Shown: positions 1 through 57,270 of the stretch, in pieces
Layout: every line of letters begins with the position of its first letter
Numbering within the stretch: position 1 is the stretch's first letter
NCBI GenBank assembly: GCA_016292035.1
Contig: JAEEZR010000019.1
Span: forward strand, 1-60,102
Direction of reading: 5' to 3'
DNA from: Bacillales bacterium
Lineage (GTDB): Bacteria > Bacillota_I > Bacilli_A > RF39 > UBA660
Length of the DNA stretch: 60,102 nucleotides
Made by a program: the position numbers and the translations under genes
The notes under the pieces: generated by a model
Told to the model about the DNA's origin: nothing
Seen by the model: the letters and a program-made list of their open reading frames with translations, nothing else
Database searches by the model: none

Positions 1-2
1 CT

Positions 3-470
3 CCAGGAAACTCTGGAGGGCCTCTATGTAATGCCAACGGAGAAATAATAGGTATTATATCTTTAAAGATAGTAGAAAGCACAGTAGAAGGACTAGGATT
101 TGCTATACCTATTGAAGATGCTATCAACTTTGCTACAGGTCTTGAAGAAGAAGGAACTATAAGAAGACCTTATATAGGTGTAAGCATGATAAATGCATCT
201 AATAGATATGACCTTAAATATGAAGGTATACAGCTAGATAGTAAGATAACAGAAGGTGTAGTACTAGCAGAAATACAAAAGAATTCTTCTGCAGATAAAG
301 CAGGACTTAAAGTAGGAGACGTAGTAATAGCAGTAGAAAAAAACAAAGTAAGAGATATAGCTGAATTTAGATATAGACTATATAGTCATAAAATAAATGA
401 TGTTATAACACTTAAAATAATAAGAGACTCTAAAGAAAAAGAAATAAAAATAACATTAGGAAGTAATTAA
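3..470 (+). CDS. htrA: HtrA/DegP-family serine protease, 3' part (5'-truncated by window edge), with C-terminal PDZ domain
   Basis: The frame from nt 3 reads PGNSGGPL (catalytic Ser motif)...EGLGFAIP...RPYIGV and runs in frame into the 186..470 ORF (PDZ: SSADKAGLKVGDVVIAV). Confidence 0.92.
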   Translation, partial: PGNSGGPLCNANGEIIGIISLKIVESTVEGLGFAIPIEDAINFATGLEEEGTIRRPYIGVSMINASNRYDLKYEGIQLDSKITEGVVLAEIQKNSSADKAGLKVGDVVIAVEKNKVRDIAEFRYRLYSHKINDVITLKIIRDSKEKEIKITLGSN

Positions 471-501
471 TACTTCCTTTTTGTATTTAAAAAAGATAAT
501 A
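441..501 (+). repeat. 61-bp direct repeat, copy 1 (last 9 codons and stop of htrA plus terminator)
   Basis: GAAATAAAAATAACATTAGGAAGTAATTAATACTTCCTTTTTGTATTTAAAAAAGATAATA is identical to 1241..1301. Confidence 0.97.
458..482 (+). terminator. Intrinsic terminator overlapping the htrA stop codon
   Basis: AGGAAGTA-ATTAA-TACTTCCT hairpin followed by a T run. Confidence 0.8.
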
Positions 502-580
502 GTTAATTAAATTGTAAATAAAGACAGCTTTTATAATGCGATACTATAATTTATGATATAATACAAATAGGAGGAATATT

Positions 581-1270
581 ATGAATAATGATATTAATCA
601 AATGAATAAATCTGATGCTTTAAAAAAAATATTTTCATATAATGAAATAATTGATAAAGTTTCTATTAGTGAAGAACAACTAAATTTAGCTAAAGAGTAT
701 ATAAAAAAAGCAAATATAATCGGGGCTTGTGAAATAGGTGAACAATTACTTCAAGGAAAATATTCTATAGAGTTATTACAAAATGAAGAATTAAAATTAA
801 ATGAAGGCAAACCTGTTAAATATGAAAGTGCCGTTGTTTTTGTAAATTCTTTAATATCTAAATTAAATGAGCAAATAACTAATGCTAATCTAACAAAGGC
901 TCAAGTGATATTTATTTTAGGCACAGAATTATTTCCAGAAGTAAATGTAGGAGATTACCCTTTTATCGATATGGGTTTTGCTCATGATAGTTATCATGCA
1001 GTCGAAATAACTCATAAGCCTTCAAAAATGATAAAAGAATGTTTAAACGAAATAGGATTAAATAATGTTCTTATTGGAGATGAATACTGTAACTCATTTT
1101 TGACAGTCAAAAATGGAAATGTTGTAACTATGGTCCACGGGCGAGAAATGTTACCTTTATATATTGACGTTAATAATACAGATGAACTTGAGGGATTCAT
1201 AAATGCTACCGGATTTAATTCAAAAGATATTAAACAAGAGGAAATAAAAATAACATTAGGAAGTAATTAA
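581..1270 (+). CDS. Hypothetical protein whose C-terminus (EIKITLGSN) is encoded by the duplicated htrA 3' end
   Basis: 229-aa ORF with strong RBS AGGAGG; no recognisable domain. Confidence 0.8.
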   Translation: MNNDINQMNKSDALKKIFSYNEIIDKVSISEEQLNLAKEYIKKANIIGACEIGEQLLQGKYSIELLQNEELKLNEGKPVKYESAVVFVNSLISKLNEQITNANLTKAQVIFILGTELFPEVNVGDYPFIDMGFAHDSYHAVEITHKPSKMIKECLNEIGLNNVLIGDEYCNSFLTVKNGNVVTMVHGREMLPLYIDVNNTDELEGFINATGFNSKDIKQEEIKITLGSN

Positions 1271-1301
1271 TACTTCCTTTTTGTATTTAAAAAAGATAAT
1301 A
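1241..1301 (+). repeat. 61-bp direct repeat, copy 2
   Basis: Identical to 441..501, exactly 800 bp downstream. Confidence 0.97.
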
Positions 1302-1333
1302 AATGTGTTAATATTTAGTTGAAGGAGACTACT

Positions 1334-2257
1334 ATGAGAAAATGTGCTGTTGTATATAATCCAGAAAGTGGAAGAGAAGTAGATAAAAGAAACAAGGCTT
1401 CACTGCCAAAATATTTAGCAGAATATGATATGGATGTTACTATGTGCCCTACAAAAGGCCCTAAAGACGCTATAAAAATAGTAAAGAAACTACCCGATGA
1501 CATAGACTTAGTAATAGCTTGTGGAGGAGACGGAACACTTAACGAAGGAATAAATGGTAACCTACTAAGAGAAAAGAAACTATTAATATCACAGCTACCA
1601 ATTGGAACAGTAAATGATGTAGCGTCTATGTATGGTTATTCTAAAAACATAAAAGAAAATATAAATAAACTAATGCATGGAACAGTAAAAAATGTTGATA
1701 CATGCCTTATTAATAACTATGGATTTGTATACGTAGCTTGTATAGGATCTTATGTAGATGTATCATATAACACTCCAAGAAATCTAAAAAAGAAGTATGG
1801 AAGACTAGGATATCTTTTCAATGCAATACTAGAGTTTAATAATGAAGAAATAAAACAATTTGATATAGAATTTGAAGTAGACGGAAAAAGAAAAGAAGGA
1901 ACATACTCATTCATATTTATTACTAATACATCAAGAATGGGTGGATTTAATAATTTATACACTGATGTAAAACTAGATGATAATATGTTTGAAGTAGTTT
2001 TATGTGATGTTAAAAGTAAAGCTGACTTATTGTTAATAGGTAGTAAGATATTAACAAGTGAAATAAAAAAAGTAAAAGAAATAGAATACTATAGGACAGA
2101 TAACTTTAAAATAAAATTTAAAAAAACACCACCTAGTTGGGTAATAGATGGTGAAGAATTTAAGCATAGAACAAAAGAGTTTACTTTTACAATAAACAAA
2201 GATATAAACATGCTAGTACCAGGAAGAAACCTAAAAAAATTATTTAAAGTAGAATAA
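1334..2257 (+). CDS. Diacylglycerol kinase family (YegS/DagK/BmrU) lipid kinase
   Basis: YNPESG, CGGDGTLNE, LPIGTVND and IDGE motifs; RBS AAGGAG favours ATG at 1334. Confidence 0.9.
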   Translation: MRKCAVVYNPESGREVDKRNKASLPKYLAEYDMDVTMCPTKGPKDAIKIVKKLPDDIDLVIACGGDGTLNEGINGNLLREKKLLISQLPIGTVNDVASMYGYSKNIKENINKLMHGTVKNVDTCLINNYGFVYVACIGSYVDVSYNTPRNLKKKYGRLGYLFNAILEFNNEEIKQFDIEFEVDGKRKEGTYSFIFITNTSRMGGFNNLYTDVKLDDNMFEVVLCDVKSKADLLLIGSKILTSEIKKVKEIEYYRTDNFKIKFKKTPPSWVIDGEEFKHRTKEFTFTINKDINMLVPGRNLKKLFKVE

Positions 2258-2269
2258 AGGCTATCTATA

Positions 2270-4354
2270 TTAGATAGCCCTTTTTAATTTAGCTTCATCA
2301 TTAGAAACTTCTTCTTTATTTTTATTACTTTCAGCTTCATCTAGTGTTAGATTAGTTATTTCTGAAAAATACACAACACCATCACTTAAAGAAACATCTT
2401 TAATTTTTACTTCTAGCTTATGACCTACTTTATAAATTCTACCATTTTCTTTATTCTTAATTCTTCCGCTAGGAAGCATTTTAAAATTATTATTAGATAA
2501 ATCTTCAAAATTAATAATGCCACTTACATACTTACATCTAACAACTATATATCCTTCATGAATTTCTTCTATGTATCCTTCCATTACAGCTCCGACTTGA
2601 TCACTAATCATTTTCAAAAAGTTTAAGTTTTCTAGTTCGCATTGGCATCTTTCTGCCATTCTTTCCATCCTAGAAGCTCTAACTGAAACTTCTCTAATAA
2701 ACTTAGTTAATCCCTCTAAGTCCTTATCGTTAAGCTCTCCTTCATCATACATATCTAAAATATTAGAAATAACTAAGTCTGATATTCTCCTAATAGGAGA
2801 AGTAAAATGAACATATCCATCATCAAATCCTAAACTAAAATGACCTTCATTAGACTCACTATAATAAGCTAATCTTAAAGTGCTAAAAAGCATATTTGAA
2901 ATAAAAATCATTTGATCTTTAGAACTAGCATTTCTAATTAAACTTTCATATAAATGAGAACTATTAATATTAGAAAGATTGTTAGCACTATTAGCATATT
3001 TATCTAAATTTAATAATGTATCTTTTATTTTAGAATTAGAAGGGTAAGGCTGATTTCTATAAATACAAGGTTTATCAGTCATTGAAATAGCAACTAAATG
3101 ATTAGCCATTATCATGAAATCTCTAATCAAATTATGTGAAGAACACTTGTATTCACTACTCATATCTTGAGCACTAAATAGTTTGAAAGAATTCTTATTA
3201 ATTATCTTTTTATCTATCTCTCTTAATAGTTTTAATTCATTTAAATATTCAGGATAAACAACATCAGTTGAGTTTAAAGATTTATTAACATCATCATAAT
3301 TCATTTTCTTATCTGATCTTATAACTGACTTAACTATTTTATAATTAATAAGATTACCATCTAAATCAAATCTCATGACAACACTTCTAGCTAGTTTATC
3401 TTCATTTTCATTTAATGAGCATAAATCCTTAGAAAGCTTATCTGGAAGCATAGGCATTACCTGATTATCATAATAAAGAGATGTGCATCTACTTAGAGCT
3501 TCTTCAAATAATTTAGAACCTAGCTTAACGTAGTGAGAAACATGCGCAATATGTACATAAAGAGTATATCCTCTTCTATTCTTTTTAATACTGATAGCGT
3601 CATCCATATCAAGACACTCTTGTTCATCAATAGTAAAAGTAACTAGTTTTCTATAATCTTCTCTTTTACTAATTTCTTCTTCACTGATATGTCCATCAAT
3701 ATTTTCAAGCTCTTCATATGATTTATCTTCAAATACAGGATCAAATCCATTAGAGCATGCAACAGCTCTATTCATTATGTTATCATCAGTAATTTTACCA
3801 ATTTTCTTCACTAAGCTAAGCTCATATCTTCCATCAAACTTATTACTTGAAGCACTAAATAAAGCAACATCACCAGGATTTAACTTTTTCATAGTCATGC
3901 TTCCTGTAACAACTTTCATCTTTTTATTTGAATTAAGTGGTTTCAAAATCTTAACACCATCAATCAAAGCAACTTCACAAACAACGTTTGAAAAAGCTCT
4001 TTCAATAACTTTGACAACACTTGTCTTGTTTTTATCAATACTTACTAAAACTTTATCAAAAACTAAAGCGCCATTTAGATTTGCTTCATCTATATAAAAT
4101 CTATTATCATCTATTTCTATAAATCTTAAACCTTTTCTAGTAGACTTAAGTTCAGTAACAAAAAAATTAGAAGGCACACTTTTAAAGACACCATTATCGT
4201 CTTCAAAAAGAATACCTTCTAATTCAAGGTCTTTTAAAACAGCTCTAACTTCTGCATCTAAATGCTTTTTATTTATAGAGAGACTTCTCTTAATGTTTTT
4301 AAATGTAATAGCAGTTTGAGTATCTTTAAATAAGTTTATTAGTTTGTCTCTCAT
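2270..4354 (-). CDS. RNase R/RNase II (RNB domain) family exoribonuclease, divergent
   Basis: N-terminal HTH and cold-shock regions, TIDEQECLDMDDAISI catalytic Asp cluster, LCSLNENEDKLA, HFTSPIRR, C-terminal S1 domain. Confidence 0.88.
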   Translation of the reverse strand: MRDKLINLFKDTQTAITFKNIKRSLSINKKHLDAEVRAVLKDLELEGILFEDDNGVFKSVPSNFFVTELKSTRKGLRFIEIDDNRFYIDEANLNGALVFDKVLVSIDKNKTSVVKVIERAFSNVVCEVALIDGVKILKPLNSNKKMKVVTGSMTMKKLNPGDVALFSASSNKFDGRYELSLVKKIGKITDDNIMNRAVACSNGFDPVFEDKSYEELENIDGHISEEEISKREDYRKLVTFTIDEQECLDMDDAISIKKNRRGYTLYVHIAHVSHYVKLGSKLFEEALSRCTSLYYDNQVMPMLPDKLSKDLCSLNENEDKLARSVVMRFDLDGNLINYKIVKSVIRSDKKMNYDDVNKSLNSTDVVYPEYLNELKLLREIDKKIINKNSFKLFSAQDMSSEYKCSSHNLIRDFMIMANHLVAISMTDKPCIYRNQPYPSNSKIKDTLLNLDKYANSANNLSNINSSHLYESLIRNASSKDQMIFISNMLFSTLRLAYYSESNEGHFSLGFDDGYVHFTSPIRRISDLVISNILDMYDEGELNDKDLEGLTKFIREVSVRASRMERMAERCQCELENLNFLKMISDQVGAVMEGYIEEIHEGYIVVRCKYVSGIINFEDLSNNNFKMLPSGRIKNKENGRIYKVGHKLEVKIKDVSLSDGVVYFSEITNLTLDEAESNKNKEEVSNDEAKLKRAI

Positions 4355-33403: not shown

Positions 33404-33406
33404 TAT

Positions 33407-33434
33407 AAAAGAACTGATTTACTCAGTTCTTTTT
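33407..33434 (+). repeat. 28-bp direct repeat, copy 1 (rpsI terminator hairpin)
   Basis: AAAAGAACTGATTTACTCAGTTCTTTTT is identical to 34557..34584. Confidence 0.95.
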
Positions 33435-33515
33435 TACGTAAATAATTATTAAAAACATAAGAACTATTTACCATAGGAACGTTTTATTATATACTGTGAT
33501 TGGAAAGGAGTAGTA

Positions 33516-34547
33516 ATGAAAAAACATTTATACATAGCACTAATTATAATGTCTTTGATACTACTTACAGGATGTAATCCGGGATTAAAGAGTATATTTA
33601 TACAAGGTAGTGGTCAAATAGCAGTAGGTGACACGGCAACACTTACCATAGATAATAAGCCTATAAAATCAATCGTTAGAGAATTGATTTGGGAATCAAG
33701 CAATGAAGAAGTTGCTAAAGTAGAAAATGGGGTAGTAACTGGAATAAGTGAAGGAAATGTAACTATTACAGCTACGGCTAATGGTAAAATAAAAGCAACA
33801 AAAAGCATTAATATATACATGCCTATTGAAAGTATTAGTATGGAAGCGCAAGAATTAAAACTAAGTTTTAATGAAGAAAAAGCAATAAAAGTTATAGTTG
33901 AACCTAGTAATGGATCATACAAATTAATAAATAGTTCACCTGATATAGTATCACTATCTACTGAAGGGAAAGTATCGGCAAATAAATATGGAAGAACTAG
34001 AATAGTAGCACAAGGTATGGATGGCAAGAATGCCTCATGTGACGTAGTAGTCACAACCACTGTTCCAAACTTTAATACCATGACAGAAACAAATGCAAAA
34101 AAATGGGGAGAAAATAACAAAGTCAAAATTGACACTAGTTCTGAGTACTCTGATGCAGTAGGCAAAGGGAAAATTATTAGTCAAAGCATTGCTCCAAACA
34201 CCGAGATAACTGATGAAGGTGCTTCAATTAAAATAATATATTCATTGGGACATAAAGCTACTTTAGGAGAAAGTAATGCATTAAAAAGTGCCAATCAATA
34301 TTTAAGAGCAATGGCTTTCTCTGCGAAAGGATTAAAAAAACAACTTGAATATGAAGGATATACAAGTGCTGAAGCTCAATATGGAGTTGACAACTGTGGC
34401 GCAGATTGGAATGCACAAGCAGCAAAATCAGCGAGTCAATACCTAAGGGTAATGTCGTTTTCAAGAAAGAGTTTATTAGATCAATTATTATATGAAGGAT
34501 TTACATATGCACAAGCAGAGTACGGAGTTTCTTCTGTTGGATACTAA
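33516..34547 (+). CDS. Lipoprotein with two Ig-like (Big_2) domains, a PASTA domain and two Ltp (host-cell-surface-exposed lipoprotein) repeats
   Basis: Lipobox LLTGC; WESSNEEVAKVENGVVTG; VPNF...EYSDAVGKGKIISQSIAP; NALKSANQYL...FSAKGLKKQLEYEGYTSAEAQYGVD repeated twice. Confidence 0.88.
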   Translation: MKKHLYIALIIMSLILLTGCNPGLKSIFIQGSGQIAVGDTATLTIDNKPIKSIVRELIWESSNEEVAKVENGVVTGISEGNVTITATANGKIKATKSINIYMPIESISMEAQELKLSFNEEKAIKVIVEPSNGSYKLINSSPDIVSLSTEGKVSANKYGRTRIVAQGMDGKNASCDVVVTTTVPNFNTMTETNAKKWGENNKVKIDTSSEYSDAVGKGKIISQSIAPNTEITDEGASIKIIYSLGHKATLGESNALKSANQYLRAMAFSAKGLKKQLEYEGYTSAEAQYGVDNCGADWNAQAAKSASQYLRVMSFSRKSLLDQLLYEGFTYAQAEYGVSSVGY

Positions 34548-34556
34548 TTATCTATA

Positions 34557-34584
34557 AAAAGAACTGATTTACTCAGTTCTTTTT
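34557..34584 (+). repeat. 28-bp direct repeat, copy 2 (terminator after the Ltp gene)
   Basis: Identical to 33407..33434, 1150 bp downstream. Confidence 0.95.
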
Positions 34585-52737: not shown

Positions 52738-52762
52738 CTGACTGTTTTTTATATATAAATGC

Positions 52763-52858
52763 TTTACACATACATGGCATAAATATTTGTATGAAATATA
52801 ATTATTTGTTATAATCAAGTTAGAAAATAGGTGGTTTTAAATGGAAGAAAAAATGGAA
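52763..52858 (+). repeat. Duplicated promoter/5' region, copy 1
   Basis: TTTACACATACATGGCATAAATATTTGTATGAAATATAATT...GGTGGTTTTAAATGGAAGAAAAAATGGAA matches 54973..55068 with 4 substitutions. Confidence 0.9.
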
Positions 52859-54940
52859 GCCTTATATCAAGAGTATTTAAAGAAAAAACTTGATTTAGTA
52901 TTTAATATAAATTCTGATGAAATAATAAACGAGTCAAAAAGAGAAGATACACCAAATAAGAAGGATGAACTTTTTTTCAGAGTATATATAGATGGCAAAT
53001 ACAATTTTGAAGATGAAGAAGGCGAAAAAATAAGCCAGGTATGGTATGACGATGCAAATGATTTTAAAGAAGGATATGCAGTAGTAGTAAAATTTAACAA
53101 AAATACAAGGTATAATTTTATAAATACTAAAGGAGAACTTCTATGTAAAGAATGGTATGACATCGCATATGATTTTAACGAAGGGGCAGCAAAAGTAGAA
53201 AACAAAGGTAGATGTAATTTTGTAAACAGGCAAGGTCAACTAATAAGTAGTGTATGGCTTGATGAAGCATGGGACTTTAACGAAGGCTATGCAAAAGTAG
53301 AAAAAAAGGGTAATTATAATTTCATAAAACAAGATGGAAGTTTCATGAGTGAAGAATGGTTTGATGCAGCCCAGGATTTTAAAGAGGGCACAGCAAGAGT
53401 AAAAAAGGAAGGCAAATATAATTTTATAAAACAAGATGGAAGCTTCATAAGTGAAGAATGGTTTGATTATGCAGAATATTTTAGAAAAGGCTATGCAGAG
53501 GTAAGAAAAAAAACAAAGTATAATCTTATAGACACTAAAGGAAGACTAATAAGTGATGAATGGTATGATCAATTAAGTGACTTTAACGAAGGATATGTAG
53601 GCGTAACAAGGGATCATTGGCAAAATTTTATAGACACACAAGGTAAATTAGTAAGTGAAGAATGGTTTGACTATGCCTGGATTTTTCAAGAAGGCATGGC
53701 AAAGGTACGAAAAAATAAAATGTGTAATTTTATAAACACTAAAGGAAAACTAATAAGTGAAGAATGGTTTGACGATGTTTGGGCCTTTGAAAATGGCATA
53801 ACATTAGTAGCCAAAGATGGTAAACGTAATTTCATAGACAAAGAAGGCAACGAACTCTTAAAGAAATGGTACAAAGATACAAGATGGTTAAGTCAAGACC
53901 ATTTACGCTGTGAAAACAATAACAAGCCACATGATTATTTATTAACTAAAGACGAAGATAACAAGCCTGTATTTATAAAAATAGAAGAGACTTTAACAGA
54001 CAAATATAATTGCATTACGCCAAAAGAAAAGATTAAAATCAAATATGAACCACTAAAGTTTTATGGACTAAACTATATTGTATGCAGGGGTGATAACACA
54101 CTTTATTTATATAACATTAATTCAAATAGTTATGAAAACATAGGATACTATGCATATGTAAAATATGATGATAACTTTATTATATATAATGGCAAAACAT
54201 ATTTTATGTATGAAGGTAAAAAAATAGATGTTTCAAGATATTATTCAAAATTAGATGATTATTTTCAAGATAATGAAATAAAAACAACTCCAGGTATTGA
54301 TATAATGACAAGAGAAGATTTTGATCTAGAAAAAAGGGAAGAAAAAAGAAGATTTTTAGAAGAAGAAAAAGAAAATCAAGAAAGACTAGATATATTAGGC
54401 GCTAAAAATCAAAATGACTTTGACAAAGCAGAAGCAACTCATAAAATGATAGAAACTTTAAAGGTATTAAGAGAAAGTGTTAATGAATTAAATAGTCTAA
54501 AATCAAAAATAGGTAATATGAAAATACCTAAAGTATCTGTTGAAAACATATTCACTGTAGTAGAAGACCATAGAAAAATAATGGATGAACTAAAAGATAC
54601 ACTAGAGTTCATTAATCTATCACATATTAGCTTTAAAGGTGTAGATATATCTGGAATAGATTTCAAAGGATGTAATATAAATCTATATCCTCAAGAAGTA
54701 TATGAAAAGAACTTAAGAGATTGTGATTTTACTGGTGTTAACTTGTCTCCATTTATAGACTTCAAAGGGGTAGACATAAGAGGAGCTAAGTTTAGCACTG
54801 ACAGTGACCCAACAACAATAGATGTAATACCTAATTTTGAAGGCGCTATATATGATGAAAAAACAACATATAATGGAAAATCACTAGTAGATATACTAGG
54901 TCCATGTGAAATAATAAAAGATAGCCAAAAAAAGAGTTGA
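52841..54940 (+). CDS. WG/KWG-type repeat protein (about 9 repeats of about 34 aa) with C-terminal pentapeptide-repeat-like domain; paralog A
   Basis: Repeats YNFIxxxGxxISEEWFDxAxxFxEGYAxV; C-terminal FKGVDISGIDFKGCNI...LRDCDFTGVNL. Confidence 0.82.
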   Translation: MEEKMEALYQEYLKKKLDLVFNINSDEIINESKREDTPNKKDELFFRVYIDGKYNFEDEEGEKISQVWYDDANDFKEGYAVVVKFNKNTRYNFINTKGELLCKEWYDIAYDFNEGAAKVENKGRCNFVNRQGQLISSVWLDEAWDFNEGYAKVEKKGNYNFIKQDGSFMSEEWFDAAQDFKEGTARVKKEGKYNFIKQDGSFISEEWFDYAEYFRKGYAEVRKKTKYNLIDTKGRLISDEWYDQLSDFNEGYVGVTRDHWQNFIDTQGKLVSEEWFDYAWIFQEGMAKVRKNKMCNFINTKGKLISEEWFDDVWAFENGITLVAKDGKRNFIDKEGNELLKKWYKDTRWLSQDHLRCENNNKPHDYLLTKDEDNKPVFIKIEETLTDKYNCITPKEKIKIKYEPLKFYGLNYIVCRGDNTLYLYNINSNSYENIGYYAYVKYDDNFIIYNGKTYFMYEGKKIDVSRYYSKLDDYFQDNEIKTTPGIDIMTREDFDLEKREEKRRFLEEEKENQERLDILGAKNQNDFDKAEATHKMIETLKVLRESVNELNSLKSKIGNMKIPKVSVENIFTVVEDHRKIMDELKDTLEFINLSHISFKGVDISGIDFKGCNINLYPQEVYEKNLRDCDFTGVNLSPFIDFKGVDIRGAKFSTDSDPTTIDVIPNFEGAIYDEKTTYNGKSLVDILGPCEIIKDSQKKS

Positions 54941-54972
54941 TAATAATCAACTCTTTTTATATATCATCACAC

Positions 54973-55068
54973 TTTACACATACATGCCATAAATATTTGT
55001 ATGAAATATAATTATTTGCTATAATCAAGATAGAAAATAGGTGGTTTTAAGTGGAAGAAAAAATGGAA
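54973..55068 (+). repeat. Duplicated promoter/5' region, copy 2
   Basis: Near-identical to 52763..52858, 2210 bp downstream. Confidence 0.9.
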
Positions 55069-57270
55069 ACTTTATATCAAGAATATCTAAAAGAAAAACT
55101 AGATTTAGTATTTAATATAGATTCTGATAAAATAATAAGAATGAGAAACAAAAATCAAGGTGAAGCTGAACCAAATGTTACAATAATAAGATTAGACAAT
55201 AGACTATATAATATTGCGGACACACACGGAAATATATTAAGTGAAGAAAGTTTTAAAAATATTTATCCTTTTGAAGATGGCTACGCTTTAGTGTATAAAG
55301 AAGGAGAGTATAACTACATAGATACACATGGAAAATTGCTAAGCGAAAAATGGTTTTTCAGTCTTGGGAAATTCTGTGAAGGATATGCCAAAGTAACGGA
55401 TTCAAACTTGAAATACAATTTTATAGACAGGCAAGGTAAAATACTATGTAAAATATGGTTTGATGAAGCCAAAGACTTTAGTAATGGCATTGCTTTAGTA
55501 AAAAGGAATCAAAAATACTATTTATTAAATACACAAGGTAAATTAGTATATAATGAGCCAAGCGATAACATTAGACTTTATAGTGGATGTGCCATAATAG
55601 AAAATGATGGGCGATATAATTTAATAAATGCGAAAGGTCAACTACTATGTGACACTTGGTATTTTATAATGGATGGTTTTGAAGATGGCTACGCTTTAGT
55701 ATGTAAGAATGGCAAGTTCAACTATATAAATGAACATGGAAAATTGCTAAGTGAAAATTGGTATGAAATGGCACGGGACTTTTATGAAGGCTTTGCGGTA
55801 GTACGGGAGAATAATAAATACAATTTTATAAACACTAAAGGGAACTTTTTAAGTAAAGAATGGTATGAAAGGACCTGGGACTTTAACGAGGGCTATGCTT
55901 TAGTAAAAAAGAATGATAAATACAACTTTATTAATACAAAAGGTTGTATTTTAAGTGAAGAATGGTATGAAAGGGCCTGGGGTTTTGGAAACGGTTATGC
56001 ACCAATAAGCAAAAATGGCAAGTATAATTTTATAGACACTCAGGGCAATCTACTAAGTGAAGAATGGTATGATAATGCTAACGGTTTTTATGAAGGATTC
56101 GCGTTGGTACAAAAAAATGGTAAATCTAATTTCATAGACACGCAAGGCAAATTAATAAGTGATAAATGGTATAAAGATATGGATCGAACTAGTTTTTACT
56201 TCGTAGGAAAAGATCCACTAGTAAAGCCTGAGTACATATTTGCTAAAAGAAAAGAAGATAAACTATCATTATTAAAAGTAGAAGAGACCTTAACAGGCAA
56301 TTATAATTGTATTACAGAAAATGGTAAGATTAAAACAAAATATAGACCAATTAAAAGCTATGGGTCAGACTTTTTAATGTGTGTAGATGAACGCCACAAT
56401 ACTATTTATTTATATAATATTAACTCTCGAAAATACACTGAAATTGGTTCGTGTGGATTTACAAAATATGATGATAATTTTATTACATATAATGACAGAA
56501 TATATTTTACTTATGAAGGCAGAATAATAGATGTTTCAAGATATTATTATAAATTAAATGACTATTTCAAAAATAATAAAACAAAAATAACTTCAGGCAT
56601 TGATATAATGACAAAAACAGATTTCGATTTATTAAATGATAAAGAAAAAGCAAGGTTCCTAGAAGAAGAAAAGGAAAACAATAAAAAACTAAAAGAAAAG
56701 CAAATTAAAGAACAGCAAGATAAAGAATTATTGGAAGCTCAAAAACAAAAAGAAAATGAGCAAGATCAAGCAACTCATGAATTAATTGGAGCATTAAAAG
56801 AATTAAGAAATAACGTTAATAAAATAAATAGTTTGAAATCAAAAATAGGTAATATGAAAATACCTAAAGTATCTGTTGAAAATATATTCACTGAATTAGA
56901 AGGTCATAAAGAAATAATGGGTGAATTAAAAGATAAATTAGAGTTCATAGACTTATCGCATATTAGCTTTAAAAATGTAGATATAAGTGGAGTGAATTTT
57001 AAAGAATGCAATATAAATCTATATCCTCAAGAAGTATATGAAAAGAACTTAAGAGATTGTGATTTTACTGGCGTTAATTTATCCCCATTTATAGACTTTA
57101 AAGGAGTAGACATAAGAGGAGCTAAGTTTAGTACTGATAGTGACCCTACAACAATAGATGTAATACCTAATTTTACTGGTGCAATATATGATGAAAAAAC
57201 AACATATAATGGAAAATCACTAGTAGATATACTAGGTCCATGTGAAATAATAGATAGTAAAAAGAAATAA
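55051..57270 (+). CDS. WG/KWG-type repeat protein (about 10 repeats) with C-terminal pentapeptide-repeat-like domain; paralog B
   Basis: Same architecture as 52841..54940; last about 80 aa nearly identical; GTG start. Confidence 0.82.
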   Translation: MEEKMETLYQEYLKEKLDLVFNIDSDKIIRMRNKNQGEAEPNVTIIRLDNRLYNIADTHGNILSEESFKNIYPFEDGYALVYKEGEYNYIDTHGKLLSEKWFFSLGKFCEGYAKVTDSNLKYNFIDRQGKILCKIWFDEAKDFSNGIALVKRNQKYYLLNTQGKLVYNEPSDNIRLYSGCAIIENDGRYNLINAKGQLLCDTWYFIMDGFEDGYALVCKNGKFNYINEHGKLLSENWYEMARDFYEGFAVVRENNKYNFINTKGNFLSKEWYERTWDFNEGYALVKKNDKYNFINTKGCILSEEWYERAWGFGNGYAPISKNGKYNFIDTQGNLLSEEWYDNANGFYEGFALVQKNGKSNFIDTQGKLISDKWYKDMDRTSFYFVGKDPLVKPEYIFAKRKEDKLSLLKVEETLTGNYNCITENGKIKTKYRPIKSYGSDFLMCVDERHNTIYLYNINSRKYTEIGSCGFTKYDDNFITYNDRIYFTYEGRIIDVSRYYYKLNDYFKNNKTKITSGIDIMTKTDFDLLNDKEKARFLEEEKENNKKLKEKQIKEQQDKELLEAQKQKENEQDQATHELIGALKELRNNVNKINSLKSKIGNMKIPKVSVENIFTELEGHKEIMGELKDKLEFIDLSHISFKNVDISGVNFKECNINLYPQEVYEKNLRDCDFTGVNLSPFIDFKGVDIRGAKFSTDSDPTTIDVIPNFTGAIYDEKTTYNGKSLVDILGPCEIIDSKKK

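Follow-up and report, generated by a model that had tools for sequence, protein, structure and literature searches.

The 3' end of the htrA gene, located at the start of a 60,102-nucleotide stretch of DNA from an uncultured gut bacterium of the Bacilli (contig JAEEZR010000019.1 of GenBank assembly GCA_016292035.1, positions 1 to 60,102 of the forward strand; the whole stretch is called the window below), carries a recently acquired small gene. As judged from comparison of DNA sequences, the insertion of this gene between htrA and a downstream lipid kinase gene is confirmed. The new DNA is flanked by a perfect 61-nt direct repeat that contains the last codons, the stop codon and the terminator hairpin of htrA, and the inserted open reading frame (ORF) reads into the second repeat copy, so that its product ends with the C-terminus of HtrA. 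A similar scar, a terminator-type hairpin duplicated around a gene unrelated to its neighbours, is found at further loci of the same genome. The explanation that we favour, at about even odds in our estimation, is a target-duplicating, probably illegitimate insertion at terminator hairpins that is not sequence-specific, rather than integration at an attachment (att) site.

The window is one contig (C28) of a metagenome bin (G000) that comprises 1,096,014 bases in 56 contigs and is 76% complete with 3.1% contamination by a marker estimate. All window features described here lie on the forward strand. The 3' part of htrA (3..470) encodes an HtrA/DegP-type serine protease with the Pfam domains Trypsin and PDZ_2, which is 73% identical to the 358-aa HtrA of the metagenome locus L066. 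Repeat copy 1 (441..501) is identical to copy 2 (1241..1301) over 61 nt, and the flanking bases differ (A and G before copies 1 and 2, G and A after them). No third copy of the segment was found in the 1,096,014-base assembly. In addition to the nine terminal htrA codons and the TAA stop, copy 1 contains the htrA terminator hairpin (458..478; 8-bp stem, 5-nt loop, T-run), which was detected both by a terminator scan and by its fold energy, and 23 nt more. As RNA, the 61-nt segment folds with -11.1 kcal/mol (z-score -3.1), and none of 200 shuffled sequences folds as well.

The initial annotation of this region, made from the letters of the window, had described an 800-bp gene unit. The distance between the repeat starts is indeed 800 nt; the unique DNA between the copies, however, amounts to 739 nt (502..1240), the rest being the 61-nt duplication. 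Within the insert, a promoter-like site (AAGACA, 18 nt, TATAAT; 521..550) found by a consensus scan agrees with the consensus at 10 of 12 positions, which is weak evidence; such sites are no commoner in the window than in shuffled sequences (8 found, 8.0 expected). A ribosome-binding site read from the sequence, AGGAGG (569..574), stands 6 nt ahead of the ATG at position 581. The inserted ORF (581..1270, 229 aa), taken from the ORF list and matched by five homologues (P0002–P0006), draws residues 1–220 from the insert, enters copy 2 in frame, and obtains from it residues 221–229 (EIKITLGSN), its stop codon and its terminator. The lipid kinase gene (1334..2257; Pfam DAGK_cat and YegS_C), which adjoins htrA in the locus L066 and in the genome G015 and is the original downstream neighbour of htrA, starts 32 bases past the end of copy 2. 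Thus, the exact repeat with its nine htrA codons, stop and hairpin, and the C-terminus EIKITLGSN common to both proteins, are as first reported. The same holds for the reported absence of an integrase or transposase between the repeats, where the only ORF matches no Pfam family at E<=1.

The polarity of the event follows from an empty site. Forty metagenome loci encoding a relative of the kinase were compared, and L066 is the one close locus, with 93% identity of the kinase over the first 73 residues. It has a complete 358-aa htrA gene, one copy of the hairpin segment behind it, and the kinase gene next. Window positions 1–511 (78% identity) and 1247–1554 (83%) both align to this locus by blastn and alignment, overlapping at L066 positions 2927–2990, and the 739 nt at 502..1240 are missing from it. 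This junction with one copy of the segment supports the earlier proposal of a single-gene insertion. The proposal that the insertion is very recent is also in agreement with the data: the two window copies are identical at 61 of 61 positions, versus only 40 of 61 between this segment and L066, and therefore the event is much younger than the split from L066, unless gene conversion homogenizes the copies. HtrA orthologues end in ITLGSN, VTLGSN or IKLGSK, and EIKITLGSN is therefore native to HtrA. Since all five homologues of the inserted ORF end differently from EIKITLGSN, the ORF has borrowed its C-terminus from HtrA, as had been suggested.

Six lineages display four states of the interval between htrA and the kinase gene, with the duplication present in the window only. 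In G015, which belongs to the same family, the two genes are 52 nt apart. In G018 they are separated by an unrelated 185-aa ORF (L007/L131), rejected as a relative of the inserted ORF on its best BLASTP match (E 0.026 over 31 residues). G001 and G002 (loci L130 and L129), of the same genus as the host, have a 2.3-kb interval with two other genes, a convergent 475-aa membrane-protein gene and a gene that by eye resembles a C39-type peptidase. No direct repeat longer than 14 nt was detected in the htrA–kinase intervals of the relatives examined. The interval looks like a hot spot for small insertions, and excision of the window insert via recombination between its repeats is plausible.

To judge from the contig sequences, misassembly is unlikely. 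The 5' part of htrA (residues 2–208) was found at the start of another contig of the same assembly (C20), which overlaps the window start by 17 nt; the overlap is a near-palindrome 440 nt away from the repeat. Because the 5' part joins via this near-palindrome, htrA is whole, and the contig break has no connection with the repeat. An overlap of exactly 141 nt is seen at three pairs of contig ends and points to a final assembly k-mer of 141; this is longer than the 61-nt repeat, and therefore each copy with both its flanks had to occur in k-mers of the data. A graph loop could have been misresolved, or a chromosome with an empty site merged with an unrelated molecule sharing the 61-mer, and the origin of the window from a 56-contig metagenome bin with 3.1% contamination, as well as its start within htrA, would be compatible with such an artefact. 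We nevertheless consider it very improbable. Both junctions required spanning k-mers, the insert joins the repeat at both edges, which requires real molecules with these joints, and the break in htrA lies away from the repeat. Moreover, older, diverged cases of the same architecture, with copies 91–96% identical, cannot be graph artefacts. A search among sequencing runs returned five, the best of which contains a fraction of 0.38 of the sampled words.

The inserted protein had been called an orphan. This description requires correction: it is a near-orphan with five distant homologues. The ORF has no match to Pfam families at E<=1, no match in PADLOC and NCBIfam, nothing below E 0.06 in PHROGs, and a best E of 0.74 in a PDB profile search. 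A cluster of the Atlas named SMI1/KNR4 was considered as a relative and rejected, its best score of 0.79 being below the meaningful level. None of 60 relatives of the host carries the ORF, and among 400 genomes of the family a profile search found no true match; the one weak match (E 7.6e-4) falls in a 240-aa ORF that by eye resembles a YebC-type regulator and was treated as false. A word-indexed search of 5.8 billion clusters returned only the inserted protein itself. Three relatives were found by an exhaustive search of 1.84 billion representatives (E 4e-16 to 7e-10), and two more by a profile search, which gives five distant homologues (P0002–P0006) in the libraries searched. They are 26–33% identical to the inserted ORF over its residues about 20–218 and come from public metagenome or run assemblies (ENA, Logan): P0002–P0004 are singleton clusters on contigs of 915–6852 nt, while P0005 and P0006, each in a cluster of one member, lie on contigs not exceeding 1,801 nt. 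The family was absent from all 50,697 phage and 72,556 plasmid records searched, and no member was found in viral contigs or genome contigs.

Comparison with these homologues reveals that the window protein is shortened at both ends. All four homologues of 292–329 aa carry an N-terminal region of about 80–100 residues that the window protein lacks, the latter covering positions 77–294 of the 296-position family profile. No coding relic of this region was detected in 502–580, where all three frames contain stops and no similarity to the family is seen over the 79 nt. Near the other end, the conserved motif G[IF]xxxDI is followed in each homologue by its own tail of 10–12 residues, and in the window protein by three residues and then the nine of HtrA; the similarity to P0002 stops at nucleotide 1231, ten bases before copy 2. 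With both ends missing, the inserted ORF resembles a captured fragment more than a dedicated cassette. A further peculiarity is observed in P0004: it starts with 41 residues from the N-terminus of TrmD (NCBIfam E 4e-13), and the 156 residues that follow are the same as those at the end of P0002. Either part of this rare gene has become joined to a housekeeping gene for a second time, or the 915-nt contig is chimeric.

The narrow distribution of the family also bears on a Campbell-type origin, in which a small circle already bearing the 61-nt segment, derived from a sister chromosome, a plasmid or a phage, would have entered by a single crossover, the repeat being the shared homology. Perfect identity with sharp edges, as seen at htrA, is the expected product of a single crossover between identical segments. 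The genome has two genes with prepilin/pseudopilin-like leaders recognized by eye, KKGFTLTE... at C41:11076-11687 and KRGFTLVE... at C52:1904-2278, which suggest competence-type DNA uptake. Still, such an origin only shifts the question of how the ORF first joined the htrA end, and no second copy, nor any member of the ORF family on a plasmid or phage, came to light in the records listed above. In addition, 61 nt is short for a RecA-dependent crossover. Taken together, these considerations make a Campbell-type integration quite improbable in our assessment.

The insertion at htrA is one of several of its kind. The whole assembly was scanned for same-strand repeats of at least 22 nt that are 200–6000 nt apart and lie mostly outside long ORFs. 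The scan listed 14 pairs, nine of which were classified: seven, at six loci, consist of terminator-type hairpins present on both sides of genes with no relation to their neighbours, and two represent tandem paralogue duplications (contigs C31 and C24). The first locus is htrA with its 229-aa ORF (61 nt, 100% identity). A second one lies within the window (33404-34584), where a copy of the rpsI terminator hairpin directly after rpsI (33404..33434) is followed by a 343-aa lipoprotein gene with the Pfam domains Ltp, PASTA and Big_2 (33516..34547) and, 5 nt past the lipoprotein stop, by another copy of the hairpin (34553..34584); the two copies match exactly over 28 nt and at 97% over 31–32 nt. 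At rplQ, three hairpin copies of 26–28 nt form an array with a 641-aa orphan and a 132-aa orphan. The der gene is followed by a RhuM-family gene, with a repeat of 28 nt (93% identity) within which both ORFs end in KGE-stop. The fifth locus consists of a 261-aa gene, an ABC transporter gene and a tRNA methylase gene, and its 44-nt repeat (91%) takes in the first five codons of the downstream gene. Finally, a 537-aa orphan between a 122-aa gene and argS is flanked by an exact 27-nt repeat.

An empty site was also observed for the der/RhuM pair: in the congener G002, der is directly followed by spoVIF. The two hairpin copies of G000 at this locus are identical at 26 of 28 positions to each other and at 18 of 28 to G002. 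Downstream of rpsI and rplQ, the congeners have different genes or a contig end, and no empty site was seen there. The duplicated segments of the six loci have no sequence in common; all are hairpins, and their lengths range from 26 to 61 nt. The duplication begins at points from within the stem to 17 nt before it and ends 1 to 23 nt after it. The ORF stop of every one of the seven inserts falls between 9 nt before copy 2 and 30 nt inside it, and three of these ORFs take their stop codon from the duplicated host sequence. Since the repeats differ wholly between loci and vary in length, target duplication fits them better than a sequence-specific att site does.

The ends of the inserts were analyzed with respect to transposition. 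None of the seven inserts has inverted repeats, and they have no end sequences in common (local alignment scores of 5–14 over 60 nt); at htrA no terminal inverted repeats were found in 502–1240, the best local alignment of its two ends scoring 10 over 60 nt. One possibility is a non-autonomous transposon with the ORF as cargo, mobilized in trans by a transposase whose target duplications are long and variable (IS1634/IS1549-like or IS1202-like). A target-site duplication is present, the 61 nt occurring once at the L066 empty site, and duplications of variable length, here 26–61 nt, are also known for IS1549 and IS1634, whose insertion generates direct repeats of 8–514 bp (PMC2266710). Against transposition speak the missing terminal inverted repeats, the single copy of the insert in the assembly, the inserts of six loci without common ends, and the passage of the ORF out of the insert into the duplication, which leaves no defined right-end structure. 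Matches to DDE_Tnp_1 (PF01609), rve (PF00665) and resolvase are likewise absent from the assembly, which is 76% complete. We conclude that a transposon of this kind is improbable.

Two other types of element were considered and rejected. A structured RNA or an ORF-less group II intron inserting after terminators disagrees with the absence of Rfam matches at E<=1 in window positions 1–2400 and with the insert encoding a protein that has homologues. As for an integron cassette, the repeat is a plain terminator hairpin with an 8-bp stem, and the PF00589 matches are only Xer-like genes or fragments on other contigs. The hexamer GTTAAT occurs 3' of both repeat copies, at 0 and 5 nt, without an integron integrase or, no attC model having been applied, an attC-like structure.

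The initial annotation had attributed the repeats to att-site integration, and direct repeats that contain a gene 3' end and dyad symmetry, as at htrA, are a classical footprint of integrase-mediated insertion. The repeats would then be attL and attR of a tyrosine-recombinase element at the htrA 3' end, which would be either a minimal integrative cassette, natively of 800 bp and moved in trans, or the decayed remnant of a larger element, similar to a cis-mobilizable element (CIME); it could excise as a circle with one repeat. CIMEs are defined by the loss of integration and transfer genes and the retention of attL and attR (PMC5704250). The htrA unit agrees with this in its gene-end repeat and in its lack of integration and transfer genes, and the three-copy array at rplQ resembles the tandem accretion reported in the same paper. 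The variable state of the htrA–kinase interval and the partial recombinase gene at a contig edge would also agree with such an element.

We found no positive evidence for att-site integration. No recombinase or transposase gene lies in or beside the 739-nt unit, no integrase gene lies beside htrA in L066, G001, G002, G015 and G018, and no integrase-bearing element occupies the site in the six relatives examined, whose intervals, as stated above, have no repeat longer than 14 nt. The tyrosine recombinases of the assembly are two full-length XerC/XerD-like proteins (291 and 292 aa), one partial gene at the start of contig C32, and one fragment. The same scar is present at five unrelated terminators, and six loci with unrelated repeats would require six site specificities. 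Furthermore, the lengths of the repeats and their edges vary relative to the hairpin, the perfect lineage-specific identity over 61 nt would require the element to have been resident in the same lineage, and the ORF is shortened at both ends in comparison with its family. In our judgement, a CIME-like element or minimal integrative cassette is unlikely, although it is the foremost alternative.

We favour target duplication because the repeats are the sequence of the host lineage, the inserts are without ends and enzymes, and the ORF looks like a piece of a longer gene. That both copies carry the lineage's own version of the segment is expected, since target duplication gives this automatically. 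In such an event, 739 nt of foreign DNA would have entered the chromosome at the htrA terminator, and with it a gene that has its own ribosome-binding site and encodes a shortened representative of a very rare protein family. The 61-nt target, that is, the last nine htrA codons, the stop codon and the terminator hairpin with its flanks, would have been duplicated. Copy 1 would leave htrA its end and its terminator, and via copy 2 the incoming ORF, having lost its own last eight to nine or so codons, would have gained the HtrA tail and a terminator, so that the downstream kinase gene would remain shielded.

Two routes to such a duplication can be envisaged. A staggered break around the hairpin may have been filled in and joined to a captured fragment; alternatively, replication may have switched template, departing from the chromosome immediately past the hairpin and rejoining it immediately ahead of the hairpin. 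The 19 nt preceding each repeat copy match at 12 of 19 positions, a value reached by 0.4% of the 8,286 pairs of 19-mers that are 800 nt apart in the window (P about 0.004), and this patch before copy 2 would fit a joint guided by short homology. The same process seems to have operated at five or more other terminators of the genome. We also speculate that the donor piece was itself bounded by donor terminators, which would place the insert ends near the ORF boundaries.

Several observations weigh against insertion by target duplication. Foreign composition was sought in the insert 502–1240 and none was seen: its GC content (0.270) is ordinary for the genome (0.280 +/- 0.031) and its codon fit is at the 14th percentile, so that absence from relatives is the sole indication of a foreign origin of the fragment. 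A transposase or integrase acting in trans may have been lost from the data, the assembly being 76% complete and insertion sequences often remaining unassembled, and the partial tyrosine recombinase gene at the start of contig C32 belongs to the same side of the argument. Empty sites were demonstrated for only two of the six loci (htrA and der/RhuM). The control genome G022, from another genus of the same family (834,243 bases, 5 contigs), yielded only one clear case, in which a 37-nt hairpin flanks a single 825-aa gene on both sides, and one possible case. Neither an enzyme nor a direct trace of the mechanism was found, and both the break and the template-switch models are ones that we infer. 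Lastly, the insert looks like a tidy gene unit with a promoter-like site, AGGAGG and an ORF, and through the fusion in frame the ORF product has a tail as long as those in its family, which a dedicated cassette would account for as well.

With these reservations, we tentatively advance a broader possibility, to which we assign a rather low probability: reduced-genome gut Bacilli, and probably other bacteria, may gain single genes by a hairpin-directed process without a recognizable mobility enzyme. The process would duplicate the whole upstream terminator, so that the newcomer has a functional terminator from the start and in some cases also the final codons and stop of a host gene, giving rise to chimeric C-termini. 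The insertion at htrA would be the most recent instance.

Repeats of other kinds were noted in the course of the scan. The window region 52762-55292 contains exact repeats of 23–69 nt and one of 167 nt at 92% identity, with a spacing of 2210–2336 nt, which looks like a tandem duplication of a gene region of roughly 2.2–2.3 kb. Near the start of contig C17 (110-3351) there are three non-coding repeat pairs of 28–86 nt with 87–96% identity and without a strong hairpin, maybe a small dispersed or tandem repeat family. A perfect 56-nt direct repeat encoding an acidic stretch (C53:637-692 and 3166-3221) lies near the N- and C-terminus of a single 872-aa ORF, which follows a GyrB-like end and hence is probably gyrA. 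In the control genome, a non-coding tandem repeat with a 217-nt unit and copies 97.5% identical was observed (G022:C4:90569-91026). Contig C7 (67-402) has a second rplQ-like frame with an in-frame TAA, 68% identical to rplQ of contig C29, and represents bin contamination or a pseudogene.

If target duplication at terminator hairpins is true, a genome can gain a gene with no integrase or transposase in the incoming DNA, and the neighbouring operons would stay undisturbed because the upstream terminator is copied behind the newcomer. It would help to explain how genomes of about 1.1 Mb with few mobile elements gain accessory genes, such as those for the Ltp-type lipoprotein, the RhuM-family protein, the ABC transporter and several orphans found here. 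The scar is a searchable signature that gives the polarity of an insertion without an outgroup and, through the divergence of the copies, a rough clock. A protein can gain the tail of a host protein together with its stop codon in one step, which calls for caution when shared C-termini are annotated.

Insertions flanked by duplicated gene ends are already known, and several described systems resemble the one analyzed here. CIMEs at the 3' ends of streptococcal genes (PMC5704250) similarly lack integration and transfer genes, are bounded by direct repeats with the end of a housekeeping gene, and form arrays like that at rplQ. They differ in that no cognate integrative and conjugative element (ICE), integrative mobilizable element (IME) or integrase was found here in the genome or its relatives (as sampled, and with G000 76% complete), in that the repeats of the six loci are unrelated and of variable length, and in that the ORF extends into the repeat and is truncated in comparison with its family. 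The IS1634-family elements IS1549 and IS1634 share with our loci the long and variable target duplications without a fixed stagger (PMC2266710). These, however, are 1.5–2-kb elements with a DDE transposase and defined ends, whereas the window insert has neither a transposase nor inverted-repeat ends, is present in a single copy, and is flanked by duplications centred on terminator hairpins.

Another likeness is to phage morons, which are extra promoter-gene-terminator units between conserved genes. As in morons, a single accessory gene forms its own expression unit between two undisturbed conserved genes, and the cargo of the rpsI locus is an Ltp-type lipoprotein (Pfam 'Host cell surface-exposed lipoprotein'), a type that is typically phage-associated. 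In contrast to morons, the units described here are chromosomal, and their terminator is copied from the upstream host gene instead of being brought along. The prophages e14 and 21 in E. coli icd carry a spare copy of the 3' end of their target gene and are similarly inserted in the last codons of a housekeeping gene, the duplicated end keeping the gene intact. Unlike the htrA unit, they bear an integrase, and their spare end is element-borne and diverged and is not the C-terminus of an element gene.

The literature searched contains nothing on duplication of a whole terminator around single genes that lack a mobility gene, recurring in one small genome, with the newcomer reading into host codons. 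We know of no description of illegitimate recombination of foreign DNA with target duplications of 26–61 nt or with a preference for terminator hairpins. The insertion at htrA nonetheless has two features in common with homology-facilitated or microhomology-mediated illegitimate recombination, namely the lack of a dedicated enzyme and of dedicated ends, and a joint at a patch of similarity, here 12 of 19 nt.

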